From assembly GCA_965231075.1 (NCBI GenBank), contig OZ246412.1, positions 463,282-527,281 of the forward strand: a DNA stretch of 64,000 nt. The letters run 5' to 3'. The notes beneath the pieces are model-generated. The model did no database searches and was not told the origin of the DNA. It worked only from the letters and a program-made list of their open reading frames with translations. The translations under genes and the position numbers were made by a program. This document shows, one piece after another, positions 6,292 through 61,806 of this stretch. The first letter of the stretch is position 1, and each line of letters begins with the position of its first letter. Source of the stretch: an uncultured Candidatus Saccharibacteria bacterium (lineage in GTDB: Bacteria; Patescibacteriota; Minisyncoccia; RBG-13-40-8-A).

Positions 6292-6492
6292 AGATACATA
6301 CAATTGAATACGTTAATTATCAAGAGTGTGGCGAGAGCACTGGCTCAATGACCCACCGGCAACCCTTTAAGGCGACTCCTCAAGGAAGGTGCCAATTCCA
6401 GCTCCAAAAGGAGAAAGATAAAAGGTCGATTTTTTATTACTCTTTCTTTGTGGAAAGAGTTTTTTAATTATTAAATTAGTAAAAATAAAAAT

Positions 6493-7657: not shown

Positions 7658-9137
7658 TTACAATCCGGACGTATTGTCGTGTTTAGCAAATCTTAGTAGT
7701 GATGAAGTTTTCACACCACCAAAATTAGCGAACGAAATATTAGATTTGCTTCCTCAAAAAATTTGGAAAGATAAAAACGCAACTTTTTTGGATCCGGTTT
7801 GTAAGTCGGGAGTATTCCTTCGCGAAATTGCAAGAAGATTGTTAGAGGGACTTAAAGAAGAAATCCCAGATATACAAAAACGCGTTGATCATATTTATAG
7901 GAATCAGCTTTTTGGAATAGGCATTACTGGATTGACCTCACTACTTTCTAGGCGCAGCTTGTATTGTTCAAAATCCGCTAATGGAAAATACTCTGTATCT
8001 AACACTTTTAATAATGAACAAGGTAATATTTCTTTCGAAAAGACGGAGCATGATTGGAAAAACGGAAGATGCTCTTTTTGTGGAGCTAGCCAATCAGAGT
8101 ATCAGCGTGAGAAGGGGCTCGAAACTCACGCTTATCAATTTATACATAATAAAAAACCTAATATAATAAACAATATGAAATTTGATGTAATTATAGGCAA
8201 CCCGCCTTATCAACTCGCGACAGGAGGAGCACAAGCACAAGCGACTCCCTTATATGATAAATTTGTTTTGCAGGCGAAGAAATTAAACCCACGCTTTTTA
8301 ACAATGATCATACCATCAAGATGGTTTTCAGGCGGGATGGGATTAAATGAATTTAGGGCAGAGATGTTAAAAGATACCAGAATAAGAAAATTGATTGATT
8401 ACCCAATATCATCAGAATGTTTTCCTGGTGTCGAGATTAAGGGGGGTGTATGCTATTTCCTTTGGGATAGGGAGAATAAAGGATTGTGTGAAGTTACTTC
8501 TATTAGAGGTGACAGAAAAACCATTTCTCAGAGACCCTTGTTGGAAGAGGGTCAAGACATTTTTATTAGATTTAATGAGGCATTGTCAATTTTATCTAAA
8601 GTAAAAAAACTTAAGGAAAAGTCTTTCTCCGATATCGTAAGTCCACAAAAACCTTTTGGTTTCCCAACAAATTTTAGAGGAAAAACTAAGCCATTCAAAA
8701 ACGCAGTTAAAATTTATGTCACAAAAGAAATAAATTACGTAAATAGAGAAGATATTTCTACTAATCTTGATTGGATTAATCAATATAAAATATTAATTAC
8801 CAAGGGTTATGGTGCTGGCGAAGATTACCCCCATCAGATAATTAATAAACCAATTCTAGCTGAACCAGGAAGTTGTTGTTCTGAGACTTATATTGTCTTG
8901 GGAACATTTTCAAATAAAACACAAGCTCAAAATGCAATATCCTATATAGAGACAAAATTCTTCCGATTTTTGGTGATGTTACAAAAAAACACTCAGGACG
9001 CATTGAGACGTGTTTATACTCTTGTCCCAATACAAGATTTTTCTGAATCATGGACTGACGAAAAGTTATATAAAAAATACAAATTAACAAAAGAAGAAAT
9101 TGAGTTTATTGAATCTATGATTCGTCCGATGAAATAA
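7635..9137 (+). CDS. gamma-class N6-adenine DNA methyltransferase (Eco57I/TaqI-like arrangement) with C-terminal target-recognition region
   Basis: motif X VFTPP, motif [12 protein letters not shown], motif [10 protein letters not shown] in canonical gamma order; ~300 aa C-terminal extension. Confidence 0.8.
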
Positions 9138-28456: not shown

Positions 28457-30125
28457 CTAATTGATTTAGGGGTTGAACCTCCTCTAGTTTGTCTTCTTTG
28501 TTTTTAAATATAAACTTTCTGACAATTGTCATCGATTCCGATAATCTAAACGCCAGAGATATCAAAAAATAAATTCCAATGCCAATGATCGCCGATATCG
28601 CAACCTGCAAAAATAATCCCACAAATGTCGCCGTGTTAAAAATTGAATTCAGAACCTGTAATAGTCCATATATAATTACGGCCATCAAAACGCAAGAAAT
28701 TAAAATTTTAGAAACAGAATCGAAAATCGCTTTTGTGTCGTATCCTTTGACTTTTTTGTGAAAAAATTTCATTAAAACGACAAAATTAAAGATACTAGAC
28801 AATGAGAATGCTAACGGTAATCCCAATACAGCAAAACTTTTAATACCACTTAATTTAAATATTGACGAAAATATTTCTGAAAACACGTTAACGCGATTTA
28901 AAATCCAAACAAACCCAAAGCTCATCACAATGTTTAAGCCGATGCTGATTAAACTAATCGAGACCGGTGTTTTGGTATCTTTTAAAGAGTAAAATGCTCT
29001 CGAGACCAAGGGAATTAAGCTTTGTGCAAAAATGCTAATGGCAAAAATTCCTAGAGCGGCTGCAGTTAATCTGGTATCCACCCAATTAAATTGACCCGTG
29101 CCTAATATTAAACGAATTATTTGTGCTCGCAAAACGAAAAATATAGTCGTAATTGGCAACACTAAGTACAGAATTTGACTAAAGGCCATTGAAAAATCTT
29201 GAGAGAATTTCTCCTTATTCTCTTCTGCTGATGATTCCGCAAGTCTGGGAAATACCGCAATTGAAAAAGAAATTGCAATTATCCCGATGGGCACATATTG
29301 CAAGTTATTGGACAGATTAAAAATTGCTACACTACCAATAGTTAAACTGGAGGCGATTGCCGTAATCACCAGATAATTAATTTGCGTCCCTGCCAAACCG
29401 ATCGTTCTGGGTATGGTGAGTTGAAGCATTTTTTTTATTCCCTCGTGAAATCTAAACAAGCCATTAAATTTCATACCCGAATAAATTGCGCTTGGCAATT
29501 GTATTAATAAATGGAGGAACGCTCCCAATACCACTCCCCAGGCCAAACCAATTAATCCCATTTTGGGTACAAAAAAAATGATTCCCAATATGATTCCCAG
29601 ATTATACATTATTGGCGCTAAAGAATATATAAAAAAGCGACGAAAATATTGTAATACGCCACTCAAAATACTACTCACGCCCAATAACAACGGACTTAAA
29701 AACATCACTCTGGTCAGTGCCACTGTTGCTTCTTTTTTGGCACCAGAGAATCCAGGGGCGATAAATGCAACGACTTGTGGCGCGAATAAAATCAGAATCC
29801 CCGATAAAACGATTAAAATTAAAACAACCCAACTGAATATCCCGCTGGTTAATTTCCAGGCATCTTTCTCGTCTTTTTTAAAATATTGAGCAAAAATTGG
29901 AATGAATGCCGAAGAAATTGCACCCATAATCAAAATACTGTAAATTAAGTCCGGCAATCGAAACGCTGTAAAATAAACATCTAATTCATCACCGGCACCA
30001 AATTTTCCTGCTAGCAATCTATCTCTGATTAAACCTAAAATTCTGCTCAGTAAGGCCGTGATCGCCAAAATAAAAGCAGCAGAAAACACTGTTTTCGATG
30101 TGTGGTTAATTATCTTTTTAACCAT
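28449..30125 (-). CDS. murJ: lipid II flippase MurJ (MviN)
   Basis: LSRILGLIRDRLLAGKFGAGDELDVYFTAFRLPDL signature, 14 TM; start taken at MVKKII. Confidence 0.9.
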   Translation of the reverse strand: MVKKIINHTSKTVFSAAFILAITALLSRILGLIRDRLLAGKFGAGDELDVYFTAFRLPDLIYSILIMGAISSAFIPIFAQYFKKDEKDAWKLTSGIFSWVVLILIVLSGILILFAPQVVAFIAPGFSGAKKEATVALTRVMFLSPLLLGVSSILSGVLQYFRRFFIYSLAPIMYNLGIILGIIFFVPKMGLIGLAWGVVLGAFLHLLIQLPSAIYSGMKFNGLFRFHEGIKKMLQLTIPRTIGLAGTQINYLVITAIASSLTIGSVAIFNLSNNLQYVPIGIIAISFSIAVFPRLAESSAEENKEKFSQDFSMAFSQILYLVLPITTIFFVLRAQIIRLILGTGQFNWVDTRLTAAALGIFAISIFAQSLIPLVSRAFYSLKDTKTPVSISLISIGLNIVMSFGFVWILNRVNVFSEIFSSIFKLSGIKSFAVLGLPLAFSLSSIFNFVVLMKFFHKKVKGYDTKAIFDSVSKILISCVLMAVIIYGLLQVLNSIFNTATFVGLFLQVAISAIIGIGIYFLISLAFRLSESMTIVRKFIFKNKEDKLEEVQPLNQLDE

Positions 30126-30232
30126 ATATAATTTATTCTCATTGTAACAGAAAGAAATTTTCATTGCTAGACACGGAGTTGGCCCTAAAGCGGAAATTTG
30201 CCAAAACAACAAAAAACCCTTATGATTAAAAC

Positions 30233-31885
30233 ATGAAAAAAATTGCTCAAATTATGCTTATTCCCACAACAATCATTTTACTGATCGTTGTTTTTGTAGT
30301 CTCGCTTTACACATTAAATGCCGAAAAAATAAATTACGGAACCAAAATTGCCGGACAAACAATTGGTGGACTATCGCCAGACGAAGCAATCGATAAACTT
30401 TCTAATTATTTCCAAGAGATAACTAATCAAAATTTCAACTTGGTCTACCAAGATAAAATCTGGACAATTAATTTAAAAAACCTAGGCATTAATATTGATG
30501 TTCACGCCACCGTTAATTTGGCTTTCGAACGTGGCCATCAATCTGGAAAATTAGTCAAAAATATTTTTTGGCAGATCAAATCATTACTGGGACTAAACCA
30601 AGCGTTGGCCTACGATATCGAAGACGCAAAAATTGAAAAATTTTTCCAAGAGAATCTCGCAATTATTCATCGACCAGCAAGAAATTCTCTTTTAGTTTAC
30701 AACAAAGAAAATAATGATTTTAACATCAGCGAATCAAGGTTTGGGACCATTATCAACAAGGATAAATTTCGAAAAGATATTGAAAAAAATATTTATCATT
30801 TCGAAGCCCAATCAATTTATTTAGACCTTGAAAATGACGAGCCAACCACAACCGAAGAACAGGCTAAAAAATTAATCCCTCGAGCTAAAGAATTGATTAA
30901 TCTTGCGCCAGTTACAATTACCGTTAATGGGAAGAAGGTAAACGAAATTACTATTGAAGATATTTTAGAATTAACCGAACCAGTTCCTGAATTAAATGAG
31001 CATAAAATAGAAAATTATCTTGTCTCACTTGCTCCATCAGTAGCCCAAGAACCGATTAATGCTCAATTGACAGTGGTCGATAACAAGGCCACAGCGTTCT
31101 CTTTATCTCAGGATGGAATACAGTTAGAAATCAGAAACAATATTGAAATTTTAAAAAACGGCCTACTCAATGGCGATAAAGAAATTGTTCTGAAAACGAT
31201 TAACACCAAGCCCGAAATTTCCACAGAAAATATCAACAATCTTGGCATCACTTCTTTTCTTGCTAAAGGTGTTTCTAATTTTTCGGGATCTTCGGCCAAC
31301 AGAATCACCAATATAAAAATTGGAGCAGCTAAATTTAACGGCGTATTAATTAAACCAAACGAAGAATTTTCTTTCAATAAATTATTGGGTGATGTCGGCC
31401 CCGAACAAGGATATAAGCCAGGATTGGTGATCAAGGACAACAAAACCATTCCTGAATACGGGGGTGGATTGTGTCAGGTTTCAACCACGGCATTTAGAGC
31501 AGCGGTCTATTCTGGCATGGAGATTACCAAGCGCTTCCCTCACGCATTTCCCGTGAAATACTATAATCCTCAAGGATTTGATGCGACTATCTATCCCCCT
31601 ATGCCAGATCTTAGATTTATTAACAATACCCCTGGACACATCCTTATACAAACCAAAATTGTCGGCAACGAATTAATTTTTGAATTTTATGGGACAAACG
31701 ACAACAGAAAGATTGAAGTTATTGGACCAGAACAATATGATTTACAGCCCGATGGCGCAATGAAAGCGAAGCTCACACAAAAAGTCTACGACAACAATGG
31801 AAATGTTATCATTGATAAAACTTTTTATTCAAATTATAAATCGCCGAGTCTGTACCCCGAAGAGATAATCAACCCCCTTCAATGA
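30233..31885 (+). CDS. VanW-family protein with N-terminal TM anchor
   Basis: YGGGLCQVSTTAFRAAVYSGMEITKR VanW core motif. Confidence 0.8.
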   Translation: MKKIAQIMLIPTTIILLIVVFVVSLYTLNAEKINYGTKIAGQTIGGLSPDEAIDKLSNYFQEITNQNFNLVYQDKIWTINLKNLGINIDVHATVNLAFERGHQSGKLVKNIFWQIKSLLGLNQALAYDIEDAKIEKFFQENLAIIHRPARNSLLVYNKENNDFNISESRFGTIINKDKFRKDIEKNIYHFEAQSIYLDLENDEPTTTEEQAKKLIPRAKELINLAPVTITVNGKKVNEITIEDILELTEPVPELNEHKIENYLVSLAPSVAQEPINAQLTVVDNKATAFSLSQDGIQLEIRNNIEILKNGLLNGDKEIVLKTINTKPEISTENINNLGITSFLAKGVSNFSGSSANRITNIKIGAAKFNGVLIKPNEEFSFNKLLGDVGPEQGYKPGLVIKDNKTIPEYGGGLCQVSTTAFRAAVYSGMEITKRFPHAFPVKYYNPQGFDATIYPPMPDLRFINNTPGHILIQTKIVGNELIFEFYGTNDNRKIEVIGPEQYDLQPDGAMKAKLTQKVYDNNGNVIIDKTFYSNYKSPSLYPEEIINPLQ

Positions 31886-33027: not shown

Positions 33028-33387
33028 CTATTGCAATCCACTACATTCGTTCGTAAATCTGAATAATCCAGATATTCCAACTCCACCAAGAAAACCTTCA
33101 ACCAATGAAATTAGAATCATGGCACAGAAGATTATTGCAACACCAATTAACGCGTTGATGATCATTTTCTTTGCTCCGTCAGCTTTCTCGCTATCACCCT
33201 TAGATAACATGTATTGAATACCTCCTAAAATTAAGAAGATAACAGCAATACCAAAACCAACAACCGCTAAAATCATTTTAACTTTAACAAAAATGTTGCA
33301 AAGAATGACCGTTGGCTCTAATGCTGCACTAGCAACAAATGGCAAAACTAACAACGATAACATTATAACTGGTAATATTTTTTTCAT
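33028..33387 (-). CDS. VirB2/TrbC-like small membrane protein (paralog 1 of 3)
   Basis: signal peptide + GGIQYMLSKGDSEKADGAKKMIINALIGVAIIF segment. Confidence 0.45.
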   Translation of the reverse strand: MKKILPVIMLSLLVLPFVASAALEPTVILCNIFVKVKMILAVVGFGIAVIFLILGGIQYMLSKGDSEKADGAKKMIINALIGVAIIFCAMILISLVEGFLGGVGISGLFRFTNECSGLQ

Positions 33388-33399
33388 ATTTGTTTTTTA

Positions 33400-33451
33400 C
33401 CCTGTTAAATATTCCGCCCCGCGGAATCATGCTTCGCATGATTTAACAGGG
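33400..33451. promoter_or_regulatory. structured intergenic element copy B (ccctgttaaat/atttaacaggg inverted repeat, two hairpins), 12 nt upstream of minus-strand ATG at 33387
   Basis: hairpins attccgccccgcggaat and catgcttcgcatg; compensatory substitutions relative to copy A. Confidence 0.6.
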
Positions 33452-33497
33452 TGAACTATGTTTATTTCTCGACCTTTGAAATATTTTTTAATTGACA

Positions 33498-33866
33498 TTA
33501 GTTTCCTGTAAGCCTAGTACTAATAAAGTCTTGCACCACCTGGATTAAAAAGAATGCCGCAAAAACAATTCCCACTCCAATCAAACTGTTGATAATCATT
33601 TTTCGAGCGTCTTTTGCCTGATCATCTTTCTCTCCCGCCGTAATATATTTAATCGCACCAAGAATGATAAAAATGACCGCTAAAATTATACCCGCCACAA
33701 ATAAAATATCTCCGATGTCCTCTATTAGGTAGCACACTTTTTGTGCGCTAGGATAACTTGATAAACTACCTTTCACGCATTGTGTGTACCCGAAAATATT
33801 TTGCGCGCTAACGACATACGGTAAGGCCAGAATTATTAAAATAAAAACGAATAATATTTTTTTCAT
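33498..33866 (-). CDS. VirB2/TrbC-like small membrane protein (paralog 2)
   Basis: signal peptide + GAIKYITAGEKDDQAKDARKMIINSLIGVGIVF. Confidence 0.45.
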   Translation of the reverse strand: MKKILFVFILIILALPYVVSAQNIFGYTQCVKGSLSSYPSAQKVCYLIEDIGDILFVAGIILAVIFIILGAIKYITAGEKDDQAKDARKMIINSLIGVGIVFAAFFLIQVVQDFISTRLTGN

Positions 33867-33882
33867 ATTAAAATTTTGTTAA

Positions 33883-34221
33883 TTATTTAATCTTCCCCAA
33901 AATCTCTGTTACTAACTGTACAATAAAGCTCGATGCCAAAACAATTGCTACACCAATTAGTGTATAGCGAATAGTTTTTTTAGCTTTTCCGGCTTTTTCG
34001 TCATCTCCAGCTGACGTTGTATATTGAATCCCGGCAATTATTATCATCACCACGCCAACGGACACGGCTACTGCCTGTAATATTCCGGCAATAATGTTAA
34101 TTAATTCGGTTATGTTGTTGGGCTTTATTGGATTTGGTATTTCAACGGTTTCTGCGCCACAGAAAGATGGCAATATTAATAACGTGCCCAAAACCAATCC
34201 TAGAAATAATTTTGTTTTCAT
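33883..34221 (-). CDS. VirB2/TrbC-like small membrane protein (paralog 3)
   Basis: signal peptide + AGIQYTTSAGDDEKAGKAKKTIRYTLIGVAIVL. Confidence 0.45.
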   Translation of the reverse strand: MKTKLFLGLVLGTLLILPSFCGAETVEIPNPIKPNNITELINIIAGILQAVAVSVGVVMIIIAGIQYTTSAGDDEKAGKAKKTIRYTLIGVAIVLASSFIVQLVTEILGKIK

Positions 34222-34223
34222 AA

Positions 34224-35555
34224 TTATTTTTTTAATAATAAATTTATTTGATTAGCTATGTTCTCGATCGTATCGTCTAAGGTTGATGCTCCTAATACTA
34301 TTGACTCTATGGCACTAGATAATATGTTTTCTATTTTTGCTGAATCAATCTGATACCAGCTTTTTGCGGTTAAACTTTGTTCAGCAAAAACCGCTAAATT
34401 TAAATTGTCGTTTTTCTGCCAATCAACTAGATTTCTTTGTGCGGTTGGTCTGTTGGTCTTTTTTAAATAATCTTTGTTAACTTTTTCTTGTGTTAAATAA
34501 AGCAAAAAATCCCACGCCGCTCCTGATGATTTAGATTTTTTAGAAACTGTATACGCCCAATAATTAGCATAATTAATGTCGAAAGCCCTTCCTTTGATCT
34601 GTGGCATCTTACCTATGCCATAGTTTAAATAAGAGTTTTTAGAATTAATTGTAGGAATGTGATAAGCATAGCTTAACATCATCGCTGATTTTCCATCAGC
34701 AAAGGCGTCTATAGAATATGGCATTTGACGATTCCATGTATAAGTTTTTTTGCTAGGATTAGAAAATTCTGTATAGAATCTTAATGCATCTTTTCCGGGA
34801 TAATATGTTTCATCATTCAGAAAAACTCCTTCGTCAAGCGTGGTGGTTCTTTTATCATCACTGATCATCTTCGTGCCATTTTGAAGCATGATTAATGATA
34901 AAATATCGGTTGCGCGATTTACGTTTTCGGCAGCGCCAAGAGATATGCCTGCACGATCTATACCGCCCCATTGGTTTCTCTTGGTTAATTTATCTAAATC
35001 TATAATTAATTCGTCCCATGTTTCCGGTGGGCCAGCAATACCAGCGCTATTAAAATAATTTTTATTATAATAAAGTGCTAGCGTATCAACATATAGTGGT
35101 AGCCCGTAAATTTTACCGTTGTCAACAAAATCGGCTTCGACAACATCAACAAATTTTTTTCTAAATTCAGCTAGGGTAAATTTTGTTGTTTGTTGTGGCA
35201 ATTCGGCTATTTTATCTTTGTGTTTAGGAAGCCAAGTGTTGTGTATTAACCAAATATCCGGACCCTTGTCTGATGCGAAAGCATTAATGAGCTCTTGTTC
35301 ATAGTTCTCGGCTGGCATTTTTCTGTAAGTAATCTTAACCGAGCAATCATTAGATTTTTTAAATCCTTCCATTGCTTCAGAGAATACTTCTGGTTCATCA
35401 TAAACTCCCCACACTTCCAAATTGGCTGGCCTGCACTGGTCCTTGGTGATTGTACCAATAATAAACACAATTATACCAATCACTACAACAACACTTAAGA
35501 TGATAATTATTTCCTTTTTCTCCATTTTTAATTCTTGGTTAATATTAATCCCCAA
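34224..35555 (-). CDS. extracellular solute-binding protein (ABC transporter, family 1-like) with N-terminal TM anchor
   Basis: 443 aa, TM anchor, periplasmic-binding-protein-like composition; weak. Confidence 0.45.
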   Translation of the reverse strand: MGININQELKMEKKEIIIILSVVVVIGIIVFIIGTITKDQCRPANLEVWGVYDEPEVFSEAMEGFKKSNDCSVKITYRKMPAENYEQELINAFASDKGPDIWLIHNTWLPKHKDKIAELPQQTTKFTLAEFRKKFVDVVEADFVDNGKIYGLPLYVDTLALYYNKNYFNSAGIAGPPETWDELIIDLDKLTKRNQWGGIDRAGISLGAAENVNRATDILSLIMLQNGTKMISDDKRTTTLDEGVFLNDETYYPGKDALRFYTEFSNPSKKTYTWNRQMPYSIDAFADGKSAMMLSYAYHIPTINSKNSYLNYGIGKMPQIKGRAFDINYANYWAYTVSKKSKSSGAAWDFLLYLTQEKVNKDYLKKTNRPTAQRNLVDWQKNDNLNLAVFAEQSLTAKSWYQIDSAKIENILSSAIESIVLGASTLDDTIENIANQINLLLKK

Positions 35556-54085: not shown

Positions 54086-55204
54086 TTATTCCCCGATTAG
54101 TCCCTCCTCTGTATAGATATTTCTAGGATTCCACAAAAGCCAACCCATTCCACCAGCATCATCGGTGGCCTGTTTCTGCAATTCAATCATTTTGGCGTCA
54201 TAAATTGCGCCCATATTAAAGTCCTGCAACCATGGTCTCAATTTGGCTAACTCTAGTTCCGGATTCGACGCCGACAAACTGGCAATTCTTTCGTTTCCTT
54301 TTTGCAGTTCTTTAAAAATTACTTCGTAGGGATAACTGGCTGGGTTTTCAAAACCCATAAATCCGGGCGGATAGTGTGATGGATAAACCATCGGACAAAC
54401 ATAATCAAAATAAGGCACAGCATATTCTAACCACTGTCCAATTCCTAGGTCATTTGTACTGCTCATTGTTAAACCAAATAAATCTGCCGAAATTGGAATG
54501 TTTAATGGCTTTAACCTTTGATCAATATATTCAAAAAATTGTCTAATAATTTCTTTTTTGGGTGTTTTTTGGTCCCAAAACGGATAAATTGCGCTAGAAA
54601 CGTTGCCGTCAGAAGGAAAGCGAATATAGTCAAAATTAATTTCATCAAAACCAACTTTAATTGCCTCCTTGGCAATTTCTAAATTGTAATCCCAAACCTC
54701 TTGTGATGCCGGATCAACCCACGCCAAACCGTTATTGTCTTCCCAAATTCCACCACCGGGTTTCTTGATTGCTAAATCAGTTCTTTCTCTGGGTAGATAG
54801 TTGTCTTCGAAAACGGCAATTCTGGCAATTATATAAATATTTTCTGTGTGTAATTTTCTTATTAATCCGTTAATATCTTTGATAAAGATCTTTTCTGAAC
54901 CAATTTTTTTAATCATGTCACTTTTGGTTTCAAACGGAACCCTGCCAGTATAATCTTTTAAATCAATCACAATCGCATTTAGTTCTGTGTTCTTTATTAG
55001 GTCAATTAATTCATTTATTCGATCATTTCCGGCGGTTCTAAATGTTGCATAAACTCCCTTAGCGGCAAACGGCTCTGGCTTTTTGATTAAATCAATTAAA
55101 AAATCTCCTCGCCCCACAAATATGGTGCGAGGAATATCAGTAACAATAAACCCGATTATCACTAACACAATAATCAAAAAAATAAAGATTTTATCTTTTT
55201 CCAT
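54086..55204 (-). CDS. membrane-anchored putative glycoside hydrolase (TIM-barrel, DUF4015-like)
   Basis: N-terminal TM anchor; FDEINFDYIRFPSDGN segment; 372 aa; weak family assignment. Confidence 0.4.
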   Translation of the reverse strand: MEKDKIFIFLIIVLVIIGFIVTDIPRTIFVGRGDFLIDLIKKPEPFAAKGVYATFRTAGNDRINELIDLIKNTELNAIVIDLKDYTGRVPFETKSDMIKKIGSEKIFIKDINGLIRKLHTENIYIIARIAVFEDNYLPRERTDLAIKKPGGGIWEDNNGLAWVDPASQEVWDYNLEIAKEAIKVGFDEINFDYIRFPSDGNVSSAIYPFWDQKTPKKEIIRQFFEYIDQRLKPLNIPISADLFGLTMSSTNDLGIGQWLEYAVPYFDYVCPMVYPSHYPPGFMGFENPASYPYEVIFKELQKGNERIASLSASNPELELAKLRPWLQDFNMGAIYDAKMIELQKQATDDAGGMGWLLWNPRNIYTEEGLIGE

Positions 55205-55209
55205 TCTAA

Positions 55210-55281
55210 TACCCTCAGTAGGAATCGGACCTACATCACCTGCTTAGAAGGCAGGTGCTCTATCCATTGAGCTATGAGGGC
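55210..55281 (-). tRNA. tRNA-Arg (anticodon TCT)
   Basis: minus strand gccctca ta gctc aatggata gagc; anticodon stem cctgc/gcagg loop cttctaa; T-arm gtagg tccgatt cctac. Confidence 0.8.
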
Positions 55282-55288
55282 AAAAATC

Positions 55289-57763
55289 TTAAAATTTCCT
55301 TTTTTTCACATCTATTGGCTTCATCTTTTTGAGGATTTTTGTCTCTAGCTCCTTGCTGGATAATTGTTCTCTTTTGAATAGTCCTGAAAATAATCTATTT
55401 AAAAATCCTTTTCTATTTTTCTTCTCTTTTAACCTATAAGGTGGAGCTGCTTCTTCTCTGTTTGAATTGCCCAATATTACGCCACCATCATAAAGTGCTT
55501 GCTTTATATCTTCTTCGCTTAATTCGGCAAATTTTATTGATTCTTTCGGAGTTTCAATTTCTTGTTCTGTTTTTTTTGTCTCTACGCTGCCAGACACAAT
55601 TATATCTGTTTTAATCTTATCGGCTATCTTGCGCATCACTTCCGGATCCACTGGATTAATATTTTCTTTTTTCGCCTCTACCTTCTTTCGGTTGCCCAGT
55701 CTAAGTTCTTGTTGTCTTTGTTTTTGTAGTTCTTTTAGTTCGCCTTTAAGTCTTTCTAGTTCGGAATTTATCCCATAATAACCCAAATCCCTGACTACTG
55801 GTTTTTTCCTAAACCAGCCCAATGGTCGGTAGATTGCCATTCTTTGCTCGGCTTGTTCAATTTCTTTGTTTTTTCTTTCTATTTTTTGAAGAATGTTCTC
55901 TTCGGCTTCAGTTTTTATTTCAACTTTAATTTCTCCAGCAACGGTTGTTTCCGACACTTCTTTCTCCTTGTCTGCGCCAGATATGTATTTTTCTAACTCA
56001 CTTCCTGGTAATATCTTAGCATCAATCCTATCTAAGATATCCTTTAAATTCAACTTTTCGTTCGCATCTGTTCGCGGAACTATCCATAAATGTTCTCTGA
56101 TTCTCAAACCAACATCAAATAGACTCTTGTCCAACTCTTTGTCTGAGAATATGAAGAAACTTTTTCCTGTTGTGTCCCACTTAAAATAACTTGCCCCTAC
56201 CGATTGAGCAGCAAAAGCTCCTCCTGGCAATTCACCTTTTACGTCGATTACTGTTTTCCCAAGTTTGGTTTCAATAATAAACCCTTTTTGTTCAAATTCT
56301 TTTAGTTTGTCTTTTGAGACCTCTATAACCTTCCTCTGTTGTTCTTGTCGGTTAATTTTTCTCATTTTCCCATTTTCTTCAATCTCGCCAATCAAATTAT
56401 ATTTCTTTAATTCCTCTTCTGTTAATTCTCGGTTGTAACCACTGTCCTCTCTGAAAAATTTCAATAATTCAGGAAAGTCCATAAATCGATGCAACCCCAA
56501 AATCGTTTTATCTGACTTGTTCCAATTTTCTGGTTTACCAATTTCTTGATAACCCTGACTGTCAATTAAATCAATAAATTCGATCATTCTAGGAATTGCC
56601 TCTATGTCATTACGCTTTATTCTTTTGTTGTTTTCAAACATTCTAAGTTTGTCGAGCAGTTTAAACACCATTCCGGCTGCCGATGGAGCGCCGTCTGGAT
56701 GATGGTCAATGATCATCCCCATATTAAATAACGGATTTTTATCTTTTCTTTCGAGTTTTATCGCTTCTTTATCGTCTAGGTCTAGTACCTGTAATTCGTT
56801 TTCTACTTCTCTTAAAATACCCACCCCATTATATTGACCGACGTCCATGTGGATTTTGTTCTTGGATCTTTCGTTGGGGTTAATGTACGAGATACTACCC
56901 TTTTTTGTATCGTTCCAGCCAGCTAATCCGAGCAATCCCAAACAAACCTTCCCGTCTAGATCTGTTTCTTGATTACTCCACGCAACATTGTGAACTGCAA
57001 AATTTCTGAACGCATAGGGAATCGTTTTTTTAAATTTTTCTTTTAGGTTGTCTATGGCTTGACCATAAATGTCTTCATACGAATATCGCTCTTTTCCTTT
57101 TTCCAGCTTTTTCTCAACCTTGTCCATTTCCCGGCCAATCTTTTCTTTAATCCATAAATCAATAGCTTCTTCCCATGTCAATTTTTCCGACTTAGCTCCC
57201 GTCTCTGTTTCTGTCTTTATTATCGTTTCTGGTTCTGTTTCTTCTGTCGTCGATTGATTTTCCTTGTTTTCAACAACGGGAATATCTTCGGCAATTCTTT
57301 CCGCCATTTTTCTCAATGACTCGTCTACCGAATCAATTGGTGGATCCAATAATATTGGTCTCTTTGAAGATCGTTCTGGTTTAGTTTTTCTTTGAGGTTT
57401 TTGTTCTCGGTATAAGTTCCTGCATACTTGTTCCCATTTATCAATTTCCTCTTGCGGTCGGTTGTTCTTTCTGGCAAATTCTAACGCCTCCTGTGCTTCT
57501 TTTAGTGAACGATCAGGAATTGTTTCTTCGTGTGCAGGGAGAAACCCCTTAACATCTTCTGCGGTATTGTTAGAGGGTTTTTTTGTTTCGTCTTTTTCTT
57601 CTTGTGCTGTTTGTTCTACTTCTTCTGGCAATATTTCACCTGGCAATAAGTCTGCACGTTCCATGTCTTCGGGACTCAAAATTCTGACCTTTTTAGTTCT
57701 TTTGGGTTTAGTAGATTTTAATTTTTCAGTTTTTTCGCCAATTCTCTCTCTTGATCTAGACAT
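55289..57763 (-). CDS. large DHH-family phosphoesterase-like protein with charged low-complexity N- and C-terminal extensions
   Basis: central MIIDHHPDG (DHH motif III) and GGAFAAQS (DHHA1-like) segments; KE-rich N-terminus and coiled-coil C-terminus; 824 aa. Confidence 0.4.
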   Translation of the reverse strand: MSRSRERIGEKTEKLKSTKPKRTKKVRILSPEDMERADLLPGEILPEEVEQTAQEEKDETKKPSNNTAEDVKGFLPAHEETIPDRSLKEAQEALEFARKNNRPQEEIDKWEQVCRNLYREQKPQRKTKPERSSKRPILLDPPIDSVDESLRKMAERIAEDIPVVENKENQSTTEETEPETIIKTETETGAKSEKLTWEEAIDLWIKEKIGREMDKVEKKLEKGKERYSYEDIYGQAIDNLKEKFKKTIPYAFRNFAVHNVAWSNQETDLDGKVCLGLLGLAGWNDTKKGSISYINPNERSKNKIHMDVGQYNGVGILREVENELQVLDLDDKEAIKLERKDKNPLFNMGMIIDHHPDGAPSAAGMVFKLLDKLRMFENNKRIKRNDIEAIPRMIEFIDLIDSQGYQEIGKPENWNKSDKTILGLHRFMDFPELLKFFREDSGYNRELTEEELKKYNLIGEIEENGKMRKINRQEQQRKVIEVSKDKLKEFEQKGFIIETKLGKTVIDVKGELPGGAFAAQSVGASYFKWDTTGKSFFIFSDKELDKSLFDVGLRIREHLWIVPRTDANEKLNLKDILDRIDAKILPGSELEKYISGADKEKEVSETTVAGEIKVEIKTEAEENILQKIERKNKEIEQAEQRMAIYRPLGWFRKKPVVRDLGYYGINSELERLKGELKELQKQRQQELRLGNRKKVEAKKENINPVDPEVMRKIADKIKTDIIVSGSVETKKTEQEIETPKESIKFAELSEEDIKQALYDGGVILGNSNREEAAPPYRLKEKKNRKGFLNRLFSGLFKREQLSSKELETKILKKMKPIDVKKRKF

Positions 57764-57775
57764 ATAAATTAATTA

Positions 57776-59344
57776 TTAATGATTAGTTCCACACTTTTTA
57801 TATTTAGACCAGCCATCTAGTTGAAGATGATTATGATTTCCTTCTGGGTTGATCCAGATGTCTTCAAGGCTTCCGTCCCAAAGTTGTTCAGCGCATTCTT
57901 CAGCTGCATTTTCAAGATTTTTTTCGTTTGTACCGTTAGCAAAATCCACTGCCAAAGAACAGCTTCGACAATCAACCGACCCCACAGAGCAATTAGTGGG
58001 ACCGAAATCTGACCTTCTATAACCGCCGTAATGCAAACTACATAACGAATGACCACAACAGCTCGAATCGCACGAATCTTTGTCTGATGAACACGTACCA
58101 CTATTTGATGTGGGATTAAAACATCTTCCCAGGTTTCCATATGTGATTGGGCTATTGTCGGAAATAGAAGTTATGATTCTATCGGACGCCGACAATTTAC
58201 TGCTCATACAGCTTAAAATACTCTTAAGTTCCGAACAAGCATCCCTTTCTTGGGTAGTTAGCATCTGTTTGCAAGTGTATTTGCCATCGAAACAACTGAA
58301 AGATGCCTTTACATCGCCACAACTATTCGTTGGTGTATCGATACACTTCTGATAATCACAACCTATGCGACAATAAGTACTAGAAGTTCCACCACAATCA
58401 AACAAACTCGTATCATCTCCTGTTGTGGCCTCTTTTTTGGTTTGATAGATAACATATTTACTAGACGAATTACCACAGGTGTTCTTCGATGCCCCCGTGT
58501 AGCAAGTACACATTGCTTGGTCATTTAAATAGCATTTTTTTGCAAACGTTGTTAGGGTCGCATCGAAACATTCCTGTTGACTATTATAACAATTACTACT
58601 AACTTGACAATTAGAGGATGCTTCATTTAACGTACATGCCGAAACACTTTTTAGCCCTGTATCGCTTGCGCAATATAGTTTTGCAGCGTCCATTTTTAAT
58701 GATGAATGACAATAAGTAGACGCATTGGCACTAACGCACTTTTCAAGACATTCTTCTTTGTCTGCAAAATTAAGGTAAACCTTGGCGTTTGTTCCGATCT
58801 GTGATGCTCCAGAGTCTGCAGGATTCAAATCATAAACCGGAGTTTCGCAAACACAGAATTTACCCTCTTCTACTGGTGGCGTTTCTGGTGTTTCTGGTGC
58901 ATCGGTTACCCCTCCTCCCGTACATTCTATTTTATTCCACGGCCAAGGAAATTGGCCAGGATTGGCTAGCTTATTAAAAATTGTATCAATTGCTGTCCAC
59001 GCTAATAGCGCAATAATTAAACCAATAACAACATTCTTGATTACGCTTTTGCCCTTGCTTAACAATCCCGGATCGGCACCAGCAAATAAAATCATTCCAC
59101 CGCCAACAGCAATTAAAATGGGTCCGATAATGATGATTAGACCGATAAGTAAATCCACAATTAGTTGTGCCATCTTAAAGATATCACAGAGCGTGCAATC
59201 GGCTTGATTTATTGAACTTCTCCCGCAAATCACAAATGGACCATTAAAGTCTGGCAGCCCTGCGAAAGAGATTGTCGGCAAAACGGTGCCAATAATTATC
59301 AGCGACAGAAGTAAATATGTTTTCATATTATTTAAATGGATCAA
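57776..59344 (-). CDS. VirB2/TrbC-like N-terminal membrane domain fused to a large Cys-rich extracellular domain
   Basis: N-terminal TM + GGGMILFAGADPGLLSKGKSVIKNVVIGLIIALLAW resembling the 33028-34221 paralogs; then ~40 Cys over 350 aa. Confidence 0.45.
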   Translation of the reverse strand: MIHLNNMKTYLLLSLIIIGTVLPTISFAGLPDFNGPFVICGRSSINQADCTLCDIFKMAQLIVDLLIGLIIIIGPILIAVGGGMILFAGADPGLLSKGKSVIKNVVIGLIIALLAWTAIDTIFNKLANPGQFPWPWNKIECTGGGVTDAPETPETPPVEEGKFCVCETPVYDLNPADSGASQIGTNAKVYLNFADKEECLEKCVSANASTYCHSSLKMDAAKLYCASDTGLKSVSACTLNEASSNCQVSSNCYNSQQECFDATLTTFAKKCYLNDQAMCTCYTGASKNTCGNSSSKYVIYQTKKEATTGDDTSLFDCGGTSSTYCRIGCDYQKCIDTPTNSCGDVKASFSCFDGKYTCKQMLTTQERDACSELKSILSCMSSKLSASDRIITSISDNSPITYGNLGRCFNPTSNSGTCSSDKDSCDSSCCGHSLCSLHYGGYRRSDFGPTNCSVGSVDCRSCSLAVDFANGTNEKNLENAAEECAEQLWDGSLEDIWINPEGNHNHLQLDGWSKYKKCGTNH

Positions 59345-59600
59345 AATAATTTTTATTTAATATTTCGTTTATGTTATTTTCTTGTTGGGAAAATTTATTG
59401 ATTAAGGCATTATAGATGCTCTCTTTAATTTCTAGTCTGGGTGGCATAATTTCTTGCGGACTATAGATTGGCGTATAAATGTATTTATAGAACACAATCC
59501 CTAGGTACATAATTATAACAACAAACATCAAAATTGTCCATATTCGCCAATGGTTTTTAAAAAATATCGAAACTGATTTAATTAATTTATTCTGATTCAT
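59328..59600 (-). CDS. hypothetical small membrane protein in pilus operon
   Basis: 90 aa, one TM helix. Confidence 0.3.
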   Translation of the reverse strand: MNQNKLIKSVSIFFKNHWRIWTILMFVVIIMYLGIVFYKYIYTPIYSPQEIMPPRLEIKESIYNALINKFSQQENNINEILNKNYFDPFK

Positions 59601-60156
59601 TGCTTTGAGATGGTAATTTAATTTGCAGAATGGTTCTAATTTCGCCCAACGAAAATAGTTCTGATTCTCTGGAAAACAAATCTTTTTCTGTTAATTTTCT
59701 TGTTTGCATTGATTCAATGCTAATCAAATATGGATTGTTTTCGATCCATCCAATAAATTTCATTAAATTTTCGAAGCTTCCCGTTAAAATTAAATTAAAA
59801 ATTGGATATTCGGCAGACTTTATTTCTAAATCATTAGAGGTCCTAGCAGCATTGTTCTCCAATTCGACAATAAAATCAATGATTTGTTTTTCAGTTAGAT
59901 TAATTTTAAACATTGCTAAATCCTCTGTGATTTTTTTATATTTAAATTCTATCTGTTTTAAGTAGTCGATGTCTATCTTCTTGAGTGATAAAAGTTTTTG
60001 ATTGTCTTCGGTTGTTAAAATTGAATTTTTCTTAATTTCCCGAATCATCGGACAAATTAAAAAACCAACCATCAGAACGATTATGATCGCAAAGATTCCT
60101 GCAGTTAGATATATTTTTTGATGATTATTCATATATAAAACTAAATCTGAAATCAA
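59587..60156 (-). CDS. PilO-like type IV pilus assembly protein
   Basis: N-terminal TM then periplasmic domain; position after pilM/pilN-like genes. Confidence 0.45.
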   Translation of the reverse strand: MISDLVLYMNNHQKIYLTAGIFAIIIVLMVGFLICPMIREIKKNSILTTEDNQKLLSLKKIDIDYLKQIEFKYKKITEDLAMFKINLTEKQIIDFIVELENNAARTSNDLEIKSAEYPIFNLILTGSFENLMKFIGWIENNPYLISIESMQTRKLTEKDLFSRESELFSLGEIRTILQIKLPSQSNESE

Positions 60157-60664
60157 TATTTTTCGGATTAGTCAAATTGGAAATCGGAAAATCAATCTCT
60201 TGGTATCGAGCTGATCCTTCTAATTGTTGTTTGATTTTCAACAAACTCTCGCGAGTTGGCGAAAATCCGACAATTGTTATTCTTTTCGTGACAGAATTCA
60301 CTTCTAAATTATAGACGCTTACCTCTGATAATAATTCAGGGATAACATTTGATAGTGTTTGATAAAAATCGCTTTGATTTTTGCTAATTTTTTCTAAATC
60401 ATTTAATTTTTTGTTTAACTCTTTAACCTTCTTTTCGATTCCTTTAATGGTGTTGGTTTGTATGATTTTGGATTGTTCGATCACGATTTCTTGATTGATC
60501 GCACTGGATTTAGCATTAGAGAATATTAAAAATCCGCTCAGGAATAATATCGTAATCAATAACAAGAAAACAATAAAACAACCCGCAAAAATTATATTGT
60601 GTTCAATAAGGTGTAATCTTAATCTGTTCTTTTGTTCTGTTGGTAAAAGGTTTAATTTTATCAT
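60125..60664 (-). CDS. PilN-like type IV pilus assembly protein
   Basis: short cytoplasmic N-terminus, TM helix, coiled coil; immediately downstream of the pilM-like gene. Confidence 0.55.
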   Translation of the reverse strand: MIKLNLLPTEQKNRLRLHLIEHNIIFAGCFIVFLLLITILFLSGFLIFSNAKSSAINQEIVIEQSKIIQTNTIKGIEKKVKELNKKLNDLEKISKNQSDFYQTLSNVIPELLSEVSVYNLEVNSVTKRITIVGFSPTRESLLKIKQQLEGSARYQEIDFPISNLTNPKNIDFRFSFIYE

Positions 60665-61806
60665 TATATGTTTTTAGAATTAATGCCTCTCAATGCCAAT
60701 CCTAATACCGTAGAATAGCTTAGAGATTCTTCGTACGAAAATTCGGGAAATTTTAATTCATTCAGACAACTTGTCGGCTTTCTCTTGCTAGAACAAAGAA
60801 TGTTAACCCATGGATTTCCCAAAACAACTGGTAATTTTAACCAAAGTGAAAGATATTCAGCAATGCCAGACAAATTCGCTCCGCCACCACAAAGAATTAC
60901 TTTAGAAATCCTATCCAAACAATCTTTTTGATGTTCATCGTGTTGTTCATAAAACGATGCGCAATCTTTGATGCTCTCTACGAGTTTGGTTAGGACTGGT
61001 AATAGTATGTTAAAAATTTTCCCGTTGTCTTTATTTTTGTCTAGTCCAATTTTAAACTTTAAAACCTTGGCTTCTTCCCAGCTGATTTTCATTTGATCGG
61101 CGATTTCTTTTATCATTTGATTGTTGGATATTGGAATACTAGACGTAAATCTAATACTGTGACCAGAAAAAATATTAAAACTAGTTCGATTAAATCCAAG
61201 GTCGATAATTAATACTGGCTTGTCAGTAAATTCGTTTTTAATCAAACTTCTGATTGAGGCGATGGATTCTGTCTCAAAGACTATTGGCTCGATATCGGCT
61301 TTTCTTAGCACGCCTAAATATCTATCGATTATCTTTTTAGGAACGGCGTTAATTAGAATATCAAAATGATCGGCGTGCCCCTGTTCTTGCCTAATAATCT
61401 GCCAATCCATATAGACCTCATTTGACGGAAAAGGAATATTTGCTTCTGCTTCCCATTTAATGGCTGTTTCCAGCTCGGCCATGGTCATTTTCGGCATCCG
61501 GATAATTTTTATAAAACTATGTTGTTCCGGCAGAGAACAGACCGCATAATTAGATCTTAATTTTTTACCCTTTATTTCTTTTGTGGTTTTTCGTATTAAA
61601 TCAATTAATTCTTGATCCTTTATGATTTCACCCTCTTCAATAATCCCCGGCGGAACACTGACTCGATTATGACTTATTAACCTAGCCCCATTATTACTTT
61701 TTTTTAGTTGCGCAATCTTAATTGAAGAATCAGAAATGTCCAGGCCGAAAGCCTGAATATTTTTATATGATTTAGAAAAGATAATATTTTTGATGTTCAT
61801 GGTCAA
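60664..61806 (-). CDS. pilM: type IV pilus assembly protein PilM (actin-like ATPase fold)
   Basis: 380 aa; FGLDISDSSIKIAQL N-terminus and overall PilM/FtsA-like pattern. Confidence 0.75.
   Translation of the reverse strand: MTMNIKNIIFSKSYKNIQAFGLDISDSSIKIAQLKKSNNGARLISHNRVSVPPGIIEEGEIIKDQELIDLIRKTTKEIKGKKLRSNYAVCSLPEQHSFIKIIRMPKMTMAELETAIKWEAEANIPFPSNEVYMDWQIIRQEQGHADHFDILINAVPKKIIDRYLGVLRKADIEPIVFETESIASIRSLIKNEFTDKPVLIIDLGFNRTSFNIFSGHSIRFTSSIPISNNQMIKEIADQMKISWEEAKVLKFKIGLDKNKDNGKIFNILLPVLTKLVESIKDCASFYEQHDEHQKDCLDRISKVILCGGGANLSGIAEYLSLWLKLPVVLGNPWVNILCSSKRKPTSCLNELKFPEFSYEESLSYSTVLGLALRGINSKNI

Follow-up and report, generated by a model that had tools for sequence, protein, structure and literature searches.

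Which function can be assigned to a Cys-packed protein encoded beside a type IV pilus (T4P) operon in a member of the Candidatus Saccharibacteria? This question is raised by an ORF near one end of the analysed stretch of 64,000 nucleotides (the window). A sequence-only reading of this DNA had described the product as a VirB2-like membrane domain fused to a Cys-dense domain, and had suggested a disulfide-rich adhesin or a toxin-like module. Our results make it likely that the protein is a zinc peptidase of the LAS superfamily (lysostaphin / D-Ala-D-Ala peptidase / Sonic hedgehog) that is tethered to the membrane, lies outside the cytoplasm, is stabilised by disulfides and cuts peptidoglycan stem peptides.

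The Cys-packed gene is real and conserved

The gene was delimited as follows.

57776..59344, (-): mechanical ORF, intact and single, 522 aa from TTG at 59344
57776..59326, (-): gene proper, 516 codons from ATG at 59326 (M7), stop codon at 57776-57778

Translation most likely begins with the ATG at 59326 (M7), for a product of 516 aa. This ATG lies 1 nt from the stop codon of the upstream 90-aa ORF, and the 516-aa product is identical to the database protein P0001. A Logan run assembly also contains a called protein identical to P0001, on a contig of 48.9 kb, and P0001 is recorded from NCBI as well (longest contig, 626 kb). The count of promoter-like sites around the gene was not above that in shuffled sequence.

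We obtained 19 full-length, collinear homologs (33-63% identity), and 19 Cys positions are invariant across them, down to 33% identity. Therefore, the Cys-rich ORF is not a frameshift artefact. The collinear homologs, the invariant Cys and the Logan copy likewise rule out low-complexity sequence. The sequence-only reading had allowed for a low-complexity artefact (frameshift) or a gene split in the reads; the same protein was recovered in the Logan assembly and the NCBI record.

Cys accounts for 38 residues of the window protein (7.3%), whereas the other ORFs (53 ORFs of at least 150 aa in the window) average 1.0%. It is the sole real gene in the window that exceeds about 4% Cys. Three Cys are located in residues 1-140, 23 in residues 141-370 and 12 in residues 371-522. 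No ORF with a thioredoxin-type CxxC was found in a regex motif scan of the window ORFs.

Predicted signal peptide and pilin-like membrane anchor

The N-terminal part was divided into three segments.

59261..59326, (-): predicted signal peptide, residues 7-28, MKTYLLLSLIIIGTVLPTISFA, hydrophobic N-terminal stretch
58922..59257, (-): VirB2/TrbC-like T4SS_pilin domain, residues 30-141, PF18895, two TM helices and a K-rich loop
58874..58921, (-): Pro/Thr/Glu-rich linker, residues 142-157, TGGGVTDAPETPETPP, pLDDT <50, length variable in the alignment

The hydropathy of the window protein showed three hydrophobic stretches, corresponding to the signal peptide and the two TM helices. P23 and A28 of the signal-peptide region are invariant in the 19 homologs, and cleavage would occur after SFA. 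In the AF2 model, the helices of the pilin-like domain span residues 52-90 and 92-126 and are joined by the loop ADPGLLSKGKS. The window protein thus has the T4SS_pilin layout, in which a signal peptide is followed by two hydrophobic helices with a short basic loop.

PF18895 (T4SS_pilin) matched the window protein with an E-value of 6e-4 and 20.3 bits, the gathering cut-off being 26.6. It matched 19 of 19 full-length homologs at E<=1 (best, 5e-11). A precomputed PF18895 match is present in 12 of the 19 homologs and missing in 7, the window protein included. In NCBIfam, the pilin domain gave a weak match to the Mbov_0395 pilin-like conjugal transfer protein. Furthermore, a profile of the pilin-like region matched three small paralogs at 33028-34221 (-), with E-values from 2e-13 to 4e-11. 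The profile and PF18895 matches agree with the earlier remark that the N-terminal ~130 aa are akin to the small VirB2-like paralogs.

Three invariant Cys (C40, C50 and C53) precede the hairpin, and the invariant C141 follows it, within PWNKIEC. A disulfide staple of C40/C50/C53 with C141, and a hairpin with both N- and C-terminus outside, may be envisaged. The signal peptide, the two TM helices and the 19 invariant Cys suggest that the C-terminal region is extracytoplasmic. The architecture proposed from the sequence, in which a VirB2-like membrane domain of two helices is joined to a large, Cys-dense region outside the cytoplasm, is supported.

The Cys-dense region contains two modules

The remainder of the protein had been taken as one Cys domain of ~350 aa. 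The Cys density was confirmed, but the region consists of two modules, a middle domain and a catalytic-looking C-terminal domain (head).

58328..58873, (-): Cys-rich middle domain, residues 158-339, alpha/beta, pLDDT about 80-94
57779..58327, (-): C-terminal LAS (Hedgehog/DD-peptidase)-fold domain, residues 340-522, with Cys-containing insertions; putative Zn peptidase

Ten Cys of the middle domain are invariant (C164, C166, C199, C203, C212, C225, C259, C279, C317 and C325). This domain has no Pfam or PDB sequence match, and fold searches with it were uninformative. Repeats of CxC and CxxC had been reported in the Cys-dense region. This description was overstated: CxC occurs twice, CxxC twice and CC once, and the hhalign self-comparison detected no internal repeat. 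A middle domain built from repeats of a ~50-aa module ("CxC...ECxxxC...YC"), shared with the short Cys modules of P0020, P0025, P0027 and P0034, was considered and rejected, as this self-comparison showed no repeat and the modules lacked significant similarity (best E, 0.009).

The middle domain is lineage-specific. It is also present in P0010, which carries a different head (SLT). P0018, P0022 and P0023, which are short forms, lack this domain, as does the majority form of the family (~300 aa).

The head carries a putative zinc peptidase site

Three motifs of the head were compared with those of Sonic hedgehog (Shh), T5 endolysin and MepA.

58031..58051, (-): H432-S-L-C-S436-L-H438, then Y-G-G; matches Shh H135...S-L-H141-Y-E-G (mouse numbering)
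57944..57958, (-): S463-L-A465-V-D467; D467 corresponds to D148 of Shh and D73 of T5 endolysin
57827..57844, (-): E501-G-N-H504-N-H506; matches Shh E177...H181-I-H183 and MepA H209-M-H211

The family profile was aligned by hhalign with human ShhN (sequence identical to 6e1h_C), giving a probability of 65-75% with E-values of 6e-5 and 2.7e-5. The score was 36.4 for real ShhN and at most 14.9 for thirty ShhN shuffles. In this alignment, H432, H438, D467, E501, H504 and H506 were paired with Shh H135, H141, D148, E177, H181 and H183, respectively; of these, H135 is catalytic in Shh. D467 aligned with the D of Shh AVDI and also with that of T5 DAIDFA, although the T5 match alone was not significant. 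In Shh, the Zn ligands are H141, D148 and H183, and E177 is the catalytic Glu (PMC6027127).

These residues are strongly conserved. H438, G440, D467, H504 and H506 are found in all 173 family members (100%), H432 and S436 each in 171 of 173, and S463 and A465 in at least 98%. E501, aligned to the catalytic E177, is kept in 149 of the 173 members (86%). The H-x-H motif is present as H504-N-H506. The spacing H-x(3-6)-D, canonical for LAS peptidases, is not found: the window protein has H438-x28-D467, and the shortest forms have H-x13-D. An insertion splits the H...D motif of the head, and the insertion at residues 441-462 may serve as a lid. H438, D467 and H506 are putative Zn ligands, and the head has a complete set of putative Zn/catalytic residues.

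The structural model of the head alone was confident (pLDDT 82, pTM 0.83), and the head was scored as having the Hedgehog/DD-peptidase fold. In Foldseek, which had been proposed earlier as a check together with structure prediction, the whole three-domain model gave no PDB match at E<=1e-3. Searches of Pfam, NCBIfam and PDB with the whole protein and a 19-sequence profile recovered the pilin domain only. No match to the Pfam Peptidase_M15 families or HH_signal was obtained at E<=1 with the window protein and 19 homologs, and the head had no match in NCBIfam or PDB sequence searches (single and profile). The family profile did not align significantly with the single T5 endolysin or MepA sequences, the alignments being short and placed on the Zn-ligand motifs. 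A viral-contig scan for relatives of T5 lys returned near-identical sequences only. We count against the peptidase assignment that no curated peptidase family was matched, that the hhalign probability was 65-75%, not >95%, that the H...D spacing departs from the canonical one, and that Hedgehog itself is an example of this fold acting as a ligand.

Some relatives keep the anchor and exchange the head

The family comprises 664 clusters at 50% identity, mostly from Parcubacteria-type genomes, and its members are annotated only as "pilin" or "hypothetical". A scan of GTDB genomes with the single protein found nothing, and a scan with a tighter alignment recovered a single locus (L008), which bears the label "uncultured Candidatus Saccharibacteria".

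In the close relatives P0010, P0017, P0020 and P0021, the pilin domain and Cys-rich stalk are kept and the head is replaced by an SLT lytic transglycosylase. In other relatives, the LAS head shares its chain with SLT (P0111 and P0142) or glucosaminidase (P0105), and in P0087 it is followed by papain. The pilin anchor also carries a GH-like domain in relatives. Since the head is swapped for, or joined to, SLT or glucosaminidase, peptidoglycan is suggested as its substrate.

The gene closes the T4P operon in most informative contexts

The following genes surround the target gene.

59328..61806, (-): upstream operon genes (pilM, pilN-like, pilO-like and the 90-aa ORF)
60664-61806, (-): pilM, PilM_2 E 2e-48
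60125-60664, (-): pilN-like, named by position only
59587-60156, (-): pilO-like, named by position only
59328-59600, (-): 90-aa single-TM ORF
55289..57763, (-): 824-aa ORF, highly charged, separated by 12 nt from the 3' end of the target gene, without Pfam match
54086..55204, (-): gene of a putative DUF4015 glycosyl hydrolase (PF13200, E 4e-103), TM segment at the N-terminus

Pilin-like genes extend beyond pilM to 63987. The T4P genes had been placed downstream of the Cys-rich gene; they are on the same strand, as stated, but with respect to transcription they are upstream of it. The order pilB-pilC-pilins-pilMNO-90aa-target is kept in L001, L003, L044, L045, L047 and L048, and in 6 of 10 informative contexts the gene is the last of the T4P operon, the gaps being 0-4 nt. 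In these contexts, the gene of a putative wall hydrolase closes the operon of an envelope-spanning machine, and that machine is T4P, not T4SS. The protein belongs to a CPR/Patescibacteria lineage and is linked to the pilus operon, as had been supposed.

The slot of the 824-aa ORF varies in relatives (0, 113, 363, 573, 666 or 752 aa), and ORFs in this slot share only a C-terminal stretch, the length of which differs between loci (about 65-200 aa). Downstream of the ortholog, the DUF4015 gene is present in 12 of 12 contexts; its homolog in PDB, 4s1a, was deposited as "uncharacterized protein". EF-P and RNase Y also recur close to the homolog loci, and the conserved neighbourhood may partly be synteny inherited within one clade. 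The head and stalk show 30-61% identity across loci, compared with 56-81% for the neighbouring DUF4015 protein, and thus evolve faster. The organism encodes MurJ and a VanW/PG_binding_4 protein, and therefore builds its own peptidoglycan.

Proposed mechanism and other explanations

We propose that the protein would be exported by its signal peptide and anchored in the cytoplasmic membrane by the VirB2/TrbC-like hairpin, whose two ends would face outwards. These ends would be stapled by two invariant disulfides (C40/C50/C53 with C141), and the Pro/Thr linker and rigid Cys-rich stalk would hold the catalytic head off the membrane. Zn2+ would be coordinated by H438, D467 and H506 of the head, while activation of water and stabilisation of the transition state would fall to E501, H504 and H432. 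The CPR/Patescibacteria in cultivation grow attached to host cells and have two walls to cross, their own and that of the host. The enzyme would remodel or open the wall locally, either its own for passage of the pilus and/or that of the host at the contact site. Since the gene closes the T4P operon in most relatives and DUF4015 always follows, local wall remodelling or opening is the most likely role.

The same anchor could also be read as part of a filament. In that case, the VirB2-like domain would polymerise into, or cap, a T4SS-type filament, and the lytic head would be carried on it to breach the host wall. Such a breach could serve to attach, to scavenge nutrients or to transfer DNA or protein. 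The three small pilin paralogs in the window are of one family with the N-terminal domain, F-type pilins expose both of their termini at the pilus surface, and the same anchor bears varied lytic heads (SLT, GH-like, or a LAS head then papain). VirB2-like pilin arrays are widespread in Patescibacteria, most such genomes being without VirB1 (PMC12102498), and VirB2-like pilins are essential in S. epibionticum (PMC10633639). However, T4SS assembly genes (VirB4 etc.) were found neither among the scanned window ORFs nor among the called genes at related loci and adjoining the homologs, the gene sits in the operon of a different machine (T4P), and a C-terminal load of 380 aa per subunit fits a helical VirB2 lattice poorly. 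We therefore regard the filament as unlikely. Its broader form, in which the VirB2-type hairpin is a general Patescibacteria display platform for LAS peptidase, SLT, GH-like and papain domains and the filament is the strongest version, is given the same small chance. If true, an "enzymatically armed pilus" with T4P would drill the host wall at the episymbiotic contact site, and would supply the VirB1 function apparently missing from most CPR T4SS loci.

It is quite unlikely, in our estimation, that the head is a housekeeping DD- or LD-carboxypeptidase (VanY/LdcB/DacA-like) that trims the stem peptides of the cell itself and has no link to pilus or host. The purpose of such an enzyme would be wall maturation or recycling. 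Membrane anchoring is usual for DD-/LD-carboxypeptidases, the presence of MurJ indicates that the organism makes its own wall, and the gene lies away from pilus genes in 3 to 4 contexts. Against this stand the contexts at the end of the T4P operon, which include distant short forms (about 25-45% identity), the rapid evolution of the head and stalk, and the SLT/glucosaminidase swaps and fusions, a pattern typical of lytic or machine-associated hydrolases and not of carboxypeptidases.

A non-catalytic adhesin or ligand, in which the Cys-rich region with its Hedgehog-like head only binds a host-surface molecule, is very improbable. The disulfide-rich extracellular architecture would suit it, the middle domain, without informative fold match, could be a binding module, and animal Hedgehog uses the HhN fold as a ligand (PMC6027127). 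However, ligand-only lineages such as Drosophila Hh lose the Zn/catalytic residues (PMC6027127), whereas the six are invariant or nearly so in 173 diverged members; moreover, bona fide enzymes and the head can replace each other. Since the LAS fold is accompanied by the complete invariant Zn/catalytic set, the best reading is a tethered peptidoglycan hydrolase, not an adhesin. The "adhesin or toxin-like module" suggested earlier was only partly right; a toxin-like, lytic role against the host wall may apply.

Comparison with known systems

On this reading, a family known as "pilin" or "hypothetical" becomes a candidate for a zinc-dependent peptidase of peptidoglycan, whose active-site residues can be named, and for the VirB1-type wall-opening function, which is rarely found near CPR secretion or pilus genes. 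For the Hedgehog/DD-peptidase superfamily, it would add a divergent, disulfide-braced, insertion-bearing branch, with some bearing on the bacterial ancestry of Hedgehog. New Pfam/NCBIfam models would be justified for the head and the Cys-rich stalk.

HhN and the bacterial Hh-DD-peptidases (M15A-type) gave the sole significant profile match of the head (E about 3e-5). The head shares with HhN the motifs H-S-x-x-S-L-H-Y-x-G, A-V-D-(I/F) and E-x(2-3)-H-x-H. The H-x6-D spacing is that of Hh/DD-peptidases (PMC6027127); in contrast to the 6 of HhN, the H...D spacing of the head is 13-28, with two Cys-rich insertions. Unlike Hedgehog, the window protein has no Hint/intein-type autoprocessing domain.

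We also compared M15/M74 peptidases, namely the phage L-Ala-D-Glu endopeptidases T5, RB49, Ply500 and LysB4, as well as VanX/VanY/LdcB, MepA and the S. albus Zn DD-peptidase. All of these families are known to cut peptidoglycan stem peptides. Their ligand logic (His, Asp, H-x-H) is the same as that of the head, with D467 corresponding to T5 D73 and H504/H506 to MepA H209/H211. However, the pairwise similarity is not significant, the disulfide-rich insertions are new, and the head is fused to a pilin-like anchor.

The small T4SS_pilin (PF18895) proteins of Patescibacteria are of the same family as the N-terminal 140 aa of the window protein. They are stand-alone proteins of 110-125 aa that form arrays, whereas the window protein lies outside any pilin array and adds ~380 extracytoplasmic residues with a putative enzyme head.

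The wall of Gram-positive bacteria is opened for T4SS by PrgK, TraG (pIP501), CwlT and TcpG, which are TM-anchored, lie outside the cytoplasm and combine a glycan-cutting with a peptidase domain (PMC12102498). The relatives P0142, P0111 and P0105 have a muramidase-plus-peptidase layout exactly as in these VirB1-type hydrolases. The peptidase of the latter is a CHAP or NlpC/P60 cysteine peptidase, in contrast to the putative LAS metallopeptidase head of the window protein. Furthermore, their anchors are not VirB2-like hairpins, and the neighbouring machine of the window protein is a T4P operon, not a T4SS.

Reality and Extent of the Gene

The ORF at 57776-59344 on the minus strand is present without interruption, and its 522-aa translation, the numbering of which is used here, contains 38 Cys (7.3%). 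Across the 53 window ORFs of at least 150 aa, Cys content averages 1.0%, and every other real gene stays at or below about 4%. The database copy of the protein (P0001, 516 aa, 100% identical) begins at ATG 59326, and the stop codon of a preceding 90-aa ORF lies 1 nt ahead of this ATG. Thus, 57776-59326 is likely the gene proper.

Nineteen full-length homologs (33-63% identity) aligned collinearly with the protein from end to end, and 19 Cys positions were invariant. A separate run assembly also yields the protein, on a 48.9-kb Logan contig, and it has an NCBI record, where the longest contig is 626 kb. Therefore, the gene is not an artefact of a frameshift, low complexity or gene splitting, and the Cys-dense gene proposed in the sequence-only reading is real. 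The "CxC and CxxC repeats" of that reading were overstated: two CxC and two CxxC motifs exist, but there is no internal repeat.

Domain Organization of the Protein

The protein is divided as follows (residues).
7-28, hydrophobic segment resembling a signal peptide, ending in SFA
~30-141, two-helix hairpin (AF2 helices 52-90 and 92-126)
142-157, disordered Pro/Thr/Glu linker
158-339, alpha/beta middle domain, the Cys-rich stalk (confident model, pLDDT ~80-94)
340-522, separate C-terminal domain, the head

The hairpin matched Pfam T4SS_pilin (PF18895) only weakly in the target itself (E 6e-4), but the match recurred in 19/19 homologs, with a best value of 5e-11. The profile of the hairpin region also matched three small pilin paralogs at 33028-34221 on the minus strand (E 2e-13 to 4e-11). 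These matches bear out the earlier description of the N-terminus as VirB2-like. C40, C50 and C53 ahead of the hairpin and C141 after it are all invariant, and the loop between the two helices is basic. We infer that the hairpin is N-out/C-out and stapled by two disulfides. A pattern scan for thioredoxin-like CxxC ORFs, as a check for Dsb-like oxidoreductases, gave no hit in the window. The middle domain has at least 10 invariant Cys. When the head was modelled alone with 30 homologs, pLDDT was 82 and pTM was 0.83.

The small paralogs (119, 122 and 112 aa) are tandem PF18895 genes adjoining a solute-binding-protein gene at 34224-35555. No T4SS gene was found among the ORFs scanned beside them. 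The 119-aa paralog has Cys on either side of its TM hairpin, like the target.

The C-Terminal Domain Resembles LAS Metallopeptidases

No match to the head was obtained with curated sequence models (Pfam, NCBIfam) or PDB sequence searches. Its alignment shows S-x-H-Y-G-G ... S-x-A-V-D-F ... E-x-x-H-x-H, and these motifs resemble the LAS signature (SxHxxGxAxD ... HxH), here interrupted by an inserted stretch. The LAS idea was tested in three ways. The comparison list contained Drosophila Hh (6.1), RB49 M15C L-Ala-D-Glu peptidase and MepA (both 5.6), Streptomyces Zn DD-peptidase, VanX and Ply500 (all 5.4), LysB4 (5.3), VanXYg (5.0), VldE (4.9) and T5 endolysin (4.8); VanY and LdcB came slightly below the last, mixed with designed proteins.

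Family profiles of 30 and 173 sequences were aligned with human ShhN (query identical to PDB 6e1h_C) by hhalign. Prob was 65-75%, with E values of 6e-5 and 2.7e-5 and a score of 36.4, whereas the top score of 30 shuffled ShhN sequences was 14.9. The alignment paired H432, H438, D467, E501, H504 and H506 of the target with mouse Shh H135 (which we take to have a catalytic role), H141, D148, E177, H181 and H183, respectively. In Shh, Zn is bound by H141, D148 and H183, with E177 as the catalytic base (PMC6027127). Non-significant local alignments hit the same ligands, placing D467 on T5 endolysin D73 and H504/H506 on MepA H209/H211. In the 173 members, H438, G440, D467, H504 and H506 are 100% conserved, H432, S436, S463 and A465 at least 98%, and E501 86%. 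Given the comparison list, the ShhN match and this conservation together, the head very probably belongs to the LAS superfamily. In the family, an inserted Cys-bearing loop widens the canonical H-x(3-6)-D spacing to 13-28 residues. Thus, we class the head as a divergent new LAS branch, outside every existing M15 or Hedgehog family.

A Modular Family

With the head profile, 664 representatives of 50% identity clusters were retrieved at E<=1e-3, of which 398 also passed E<=1e-10. The head is C-terminal in almost all of the best 150 of the 664 matches, and the pilin hairpin is present in 164/178 collected proteins. The commonest relatives (~260-320 aa) consist of hairpin and head only; the spacer between them is 0-489 aa long in 159 members, with a median of 61 aa. 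The target belongs to a small subfamily bearing the 180-aa stalk. In other members the head is replaced by SLT or stands beside SLT or glucosaminidase domains, and further combinations were found.
P0010, P0017, P0020 and P0021: hairpin and stalk with an SLT lytic transglycosylase head instead (P0010, 55% identity across 66% of the target query)
P0036: pilin hairpin alone with a GH-like domain (PF12904)
P0111: SLT, then the LAS-like head, without pilin
P0142: pilin and SLT, then the head
P0105: 1496-aa multi-TM membrane protein with the head behind a glucosaminidase domain
P0087: pilin, ~490-aa Cys-rich region, the head, PKD and papain C1 protease, an exception to the C-terminal position

The named proteins are labelled "pilin" or "hypothetical protein" and, by source labels, come from Parcubacteria, Komeilibacteria, Minisyncoccia or the Patescibacteria group. 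One full-length homolog, P0019 (MDP2947568.1, 34% identity, 96% coverage), lies on a 3-kb NCBI contig as "pilin [Nanoarchaeota archaeon]"; the gene is probably not archaeal but comes from a mis-binned CPR contig.

Gene Neighbourhood

On the minus strand, pilin-like genes are followed by pilM (PilM_2, E 2e-48), pilN-like and pilO-like genes, the 90-aa TM ORF and the target, and then by the following features.
55289-57763, minus strand, very charged 824-aa ORF beginning 12 nt after the target
55210-55281, minus strand, tRNA gene
54086-55204, minus strand, putative glycosyl hydrolase of DUF4015 (PF13200), TM segment at the N-terminus

At locus L001, pilB and pilC lie farther upstream. The target is the last gene of the T4P operon, with gaps or overlaps of 0-4 nt, in 6/10 informative contexts, including those of distant ~300-aa short forms (L044, L045, L047, L048). 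RNase Y is upstream instead in three contexts, and L008 has neither. The P0142 gene has a divergent T4P operon 1.7 kb away. The pilus linkage noted from the sequence alone is thus recurrent, but in the direction of transcription the T4P genes precede the target and are not downstream of it.

The DUF4015 gene is 3' of the target in 12/12 orthologous contexts, directly or past one variable ORF. Since DUF4015 is 56-81% identical among loci and EF-P is also recurrent nearby, the neighbourhood is in part inherited synteny. Functional coupling of the target to the T4P operon or the DUF4015 gene is probable. Downstream of the DUF4015 gene lies a terminator-like hairpin; no such hairpin was found between the target and the 824-aa ORF. 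The sole solved DUF4015 homolog, PDB 4s1a, carries the deposition title "uncharacterized protein", and published mentions of DUF4015 are limited to its fusion with the YkyA domain (PMC12700454).

The 824-aa ORF has no Pfam match. ORFs in the same slot at related loci (752, 666, 573 and 363 aa) share with it only a C-terminal stretch (about 65-200 aa, by locus); elsewhere the slot is empty or occupied by an unrelated 113-aa ORF. The 824-aa ORF contains IIDHHPDG, which may recall DHH phosphoesterases.

Other Features of the Window and Related Loci

5189-5309, plus strand, LOOT RNA (RF03000, 84.9 bits)
6314-6424, plus strand, SAM riboswitch (RF00162, 67.2 bits), directly 5' of a 137-aa ORF (6493-6906)
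6872-9137, MmeI/Eco57I-type N6 DNA-methylase ORFs
9139-11670, plus strand, 843-aa ORF with T5orf172/MUG113 (GIY-YIG-like) and ResIII helicase domains

The 137-aa ORF and the methylase ORFs after it are an unusual cargo for a SAM riboswitch. The 843-aa ORF, which adjoins the methylase genes, is a possible restriction or defence module. At locus L046 (13824-15203), a reverse transcriptase (RVT_1) and a bAvd gene, which typically occur together in diversity-generating retroelements, lie 3-4 kb from the P0142 gene. At L004 (5094-5504), a bAvd/23S_rRNA_IVP gene is upstream of the target ortholog, beside sortase and SpaA-like genes.

Proposed Role and Comparison with Known Systems

To our knowledge, every characterised bacterial LAS enzyme (M15, M74, M23) cuts peptidoglycan stem peptides or cross-bridges. 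Two genes in the window show that the organism makes its own wall.
28449-30212, MurJ
30233-31885, VanW/PG_binding_4 protein

The combination of SLT or glucosaminidase with the head is like the classic pairing of glycan cutter and peptide cutter in autolysins and VirB1-like enzymes (PMC12102498). From the LAS substrates, this pairing and the wall genes, the target is predicted to be a tethered peptidoglycan peptidase. It would be exported by Sec, anchored by the hairpin and braced by disulfides, and its putative Zn peptidase head would cleave peptides of the wall close to the pilus machine, at the host contact or in both places, probably with the TM-anchored DUF4015 glycosidase-like protein as partner. 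We regard this scheme as fairly likely.

Display of the enzyme on an armed T4SS-type pilus is unlikely; the hairpin is pilin-like, but no T4SS genes (VirB4 etc.) were found among the scanned window ORFs or the called genes at related loci. A housekeeping carboxypeptidase is slightly less likely still. A non-catalytic adhesin or ligand, near the surface adhesin first suggested, is highly improbable, since the invariance of the predicted catalytic residues speaks against it. The tethered peptidase thus remains the preferred reading. Its enzymology would be conventional; a pilin-anchored family of lytic heads linked to T4P and DUF4015 genes is unexpected for a CPR or cell-envelope specialist, and is directly testable.

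In S. epibionticum, essential pilins lie in a T4SS cluster (PMC10633639). The Patescibacteria T4SS survey lists VirB2-like pilins without mention of pilin fusions; most VirB2-bearing genomes lack VirB1, and association of VirB1 homologs with VirB4 is the exception (PMC12102498). Our literature search found no description of pilin-hydrolase fusions or of this head, and bacterial Hedgehog-like DD-peptidases are already known (PMC6027127). Thus, the enzyme superfamily is known, and the family forms a new branch and architecture within it, large and unannotated.
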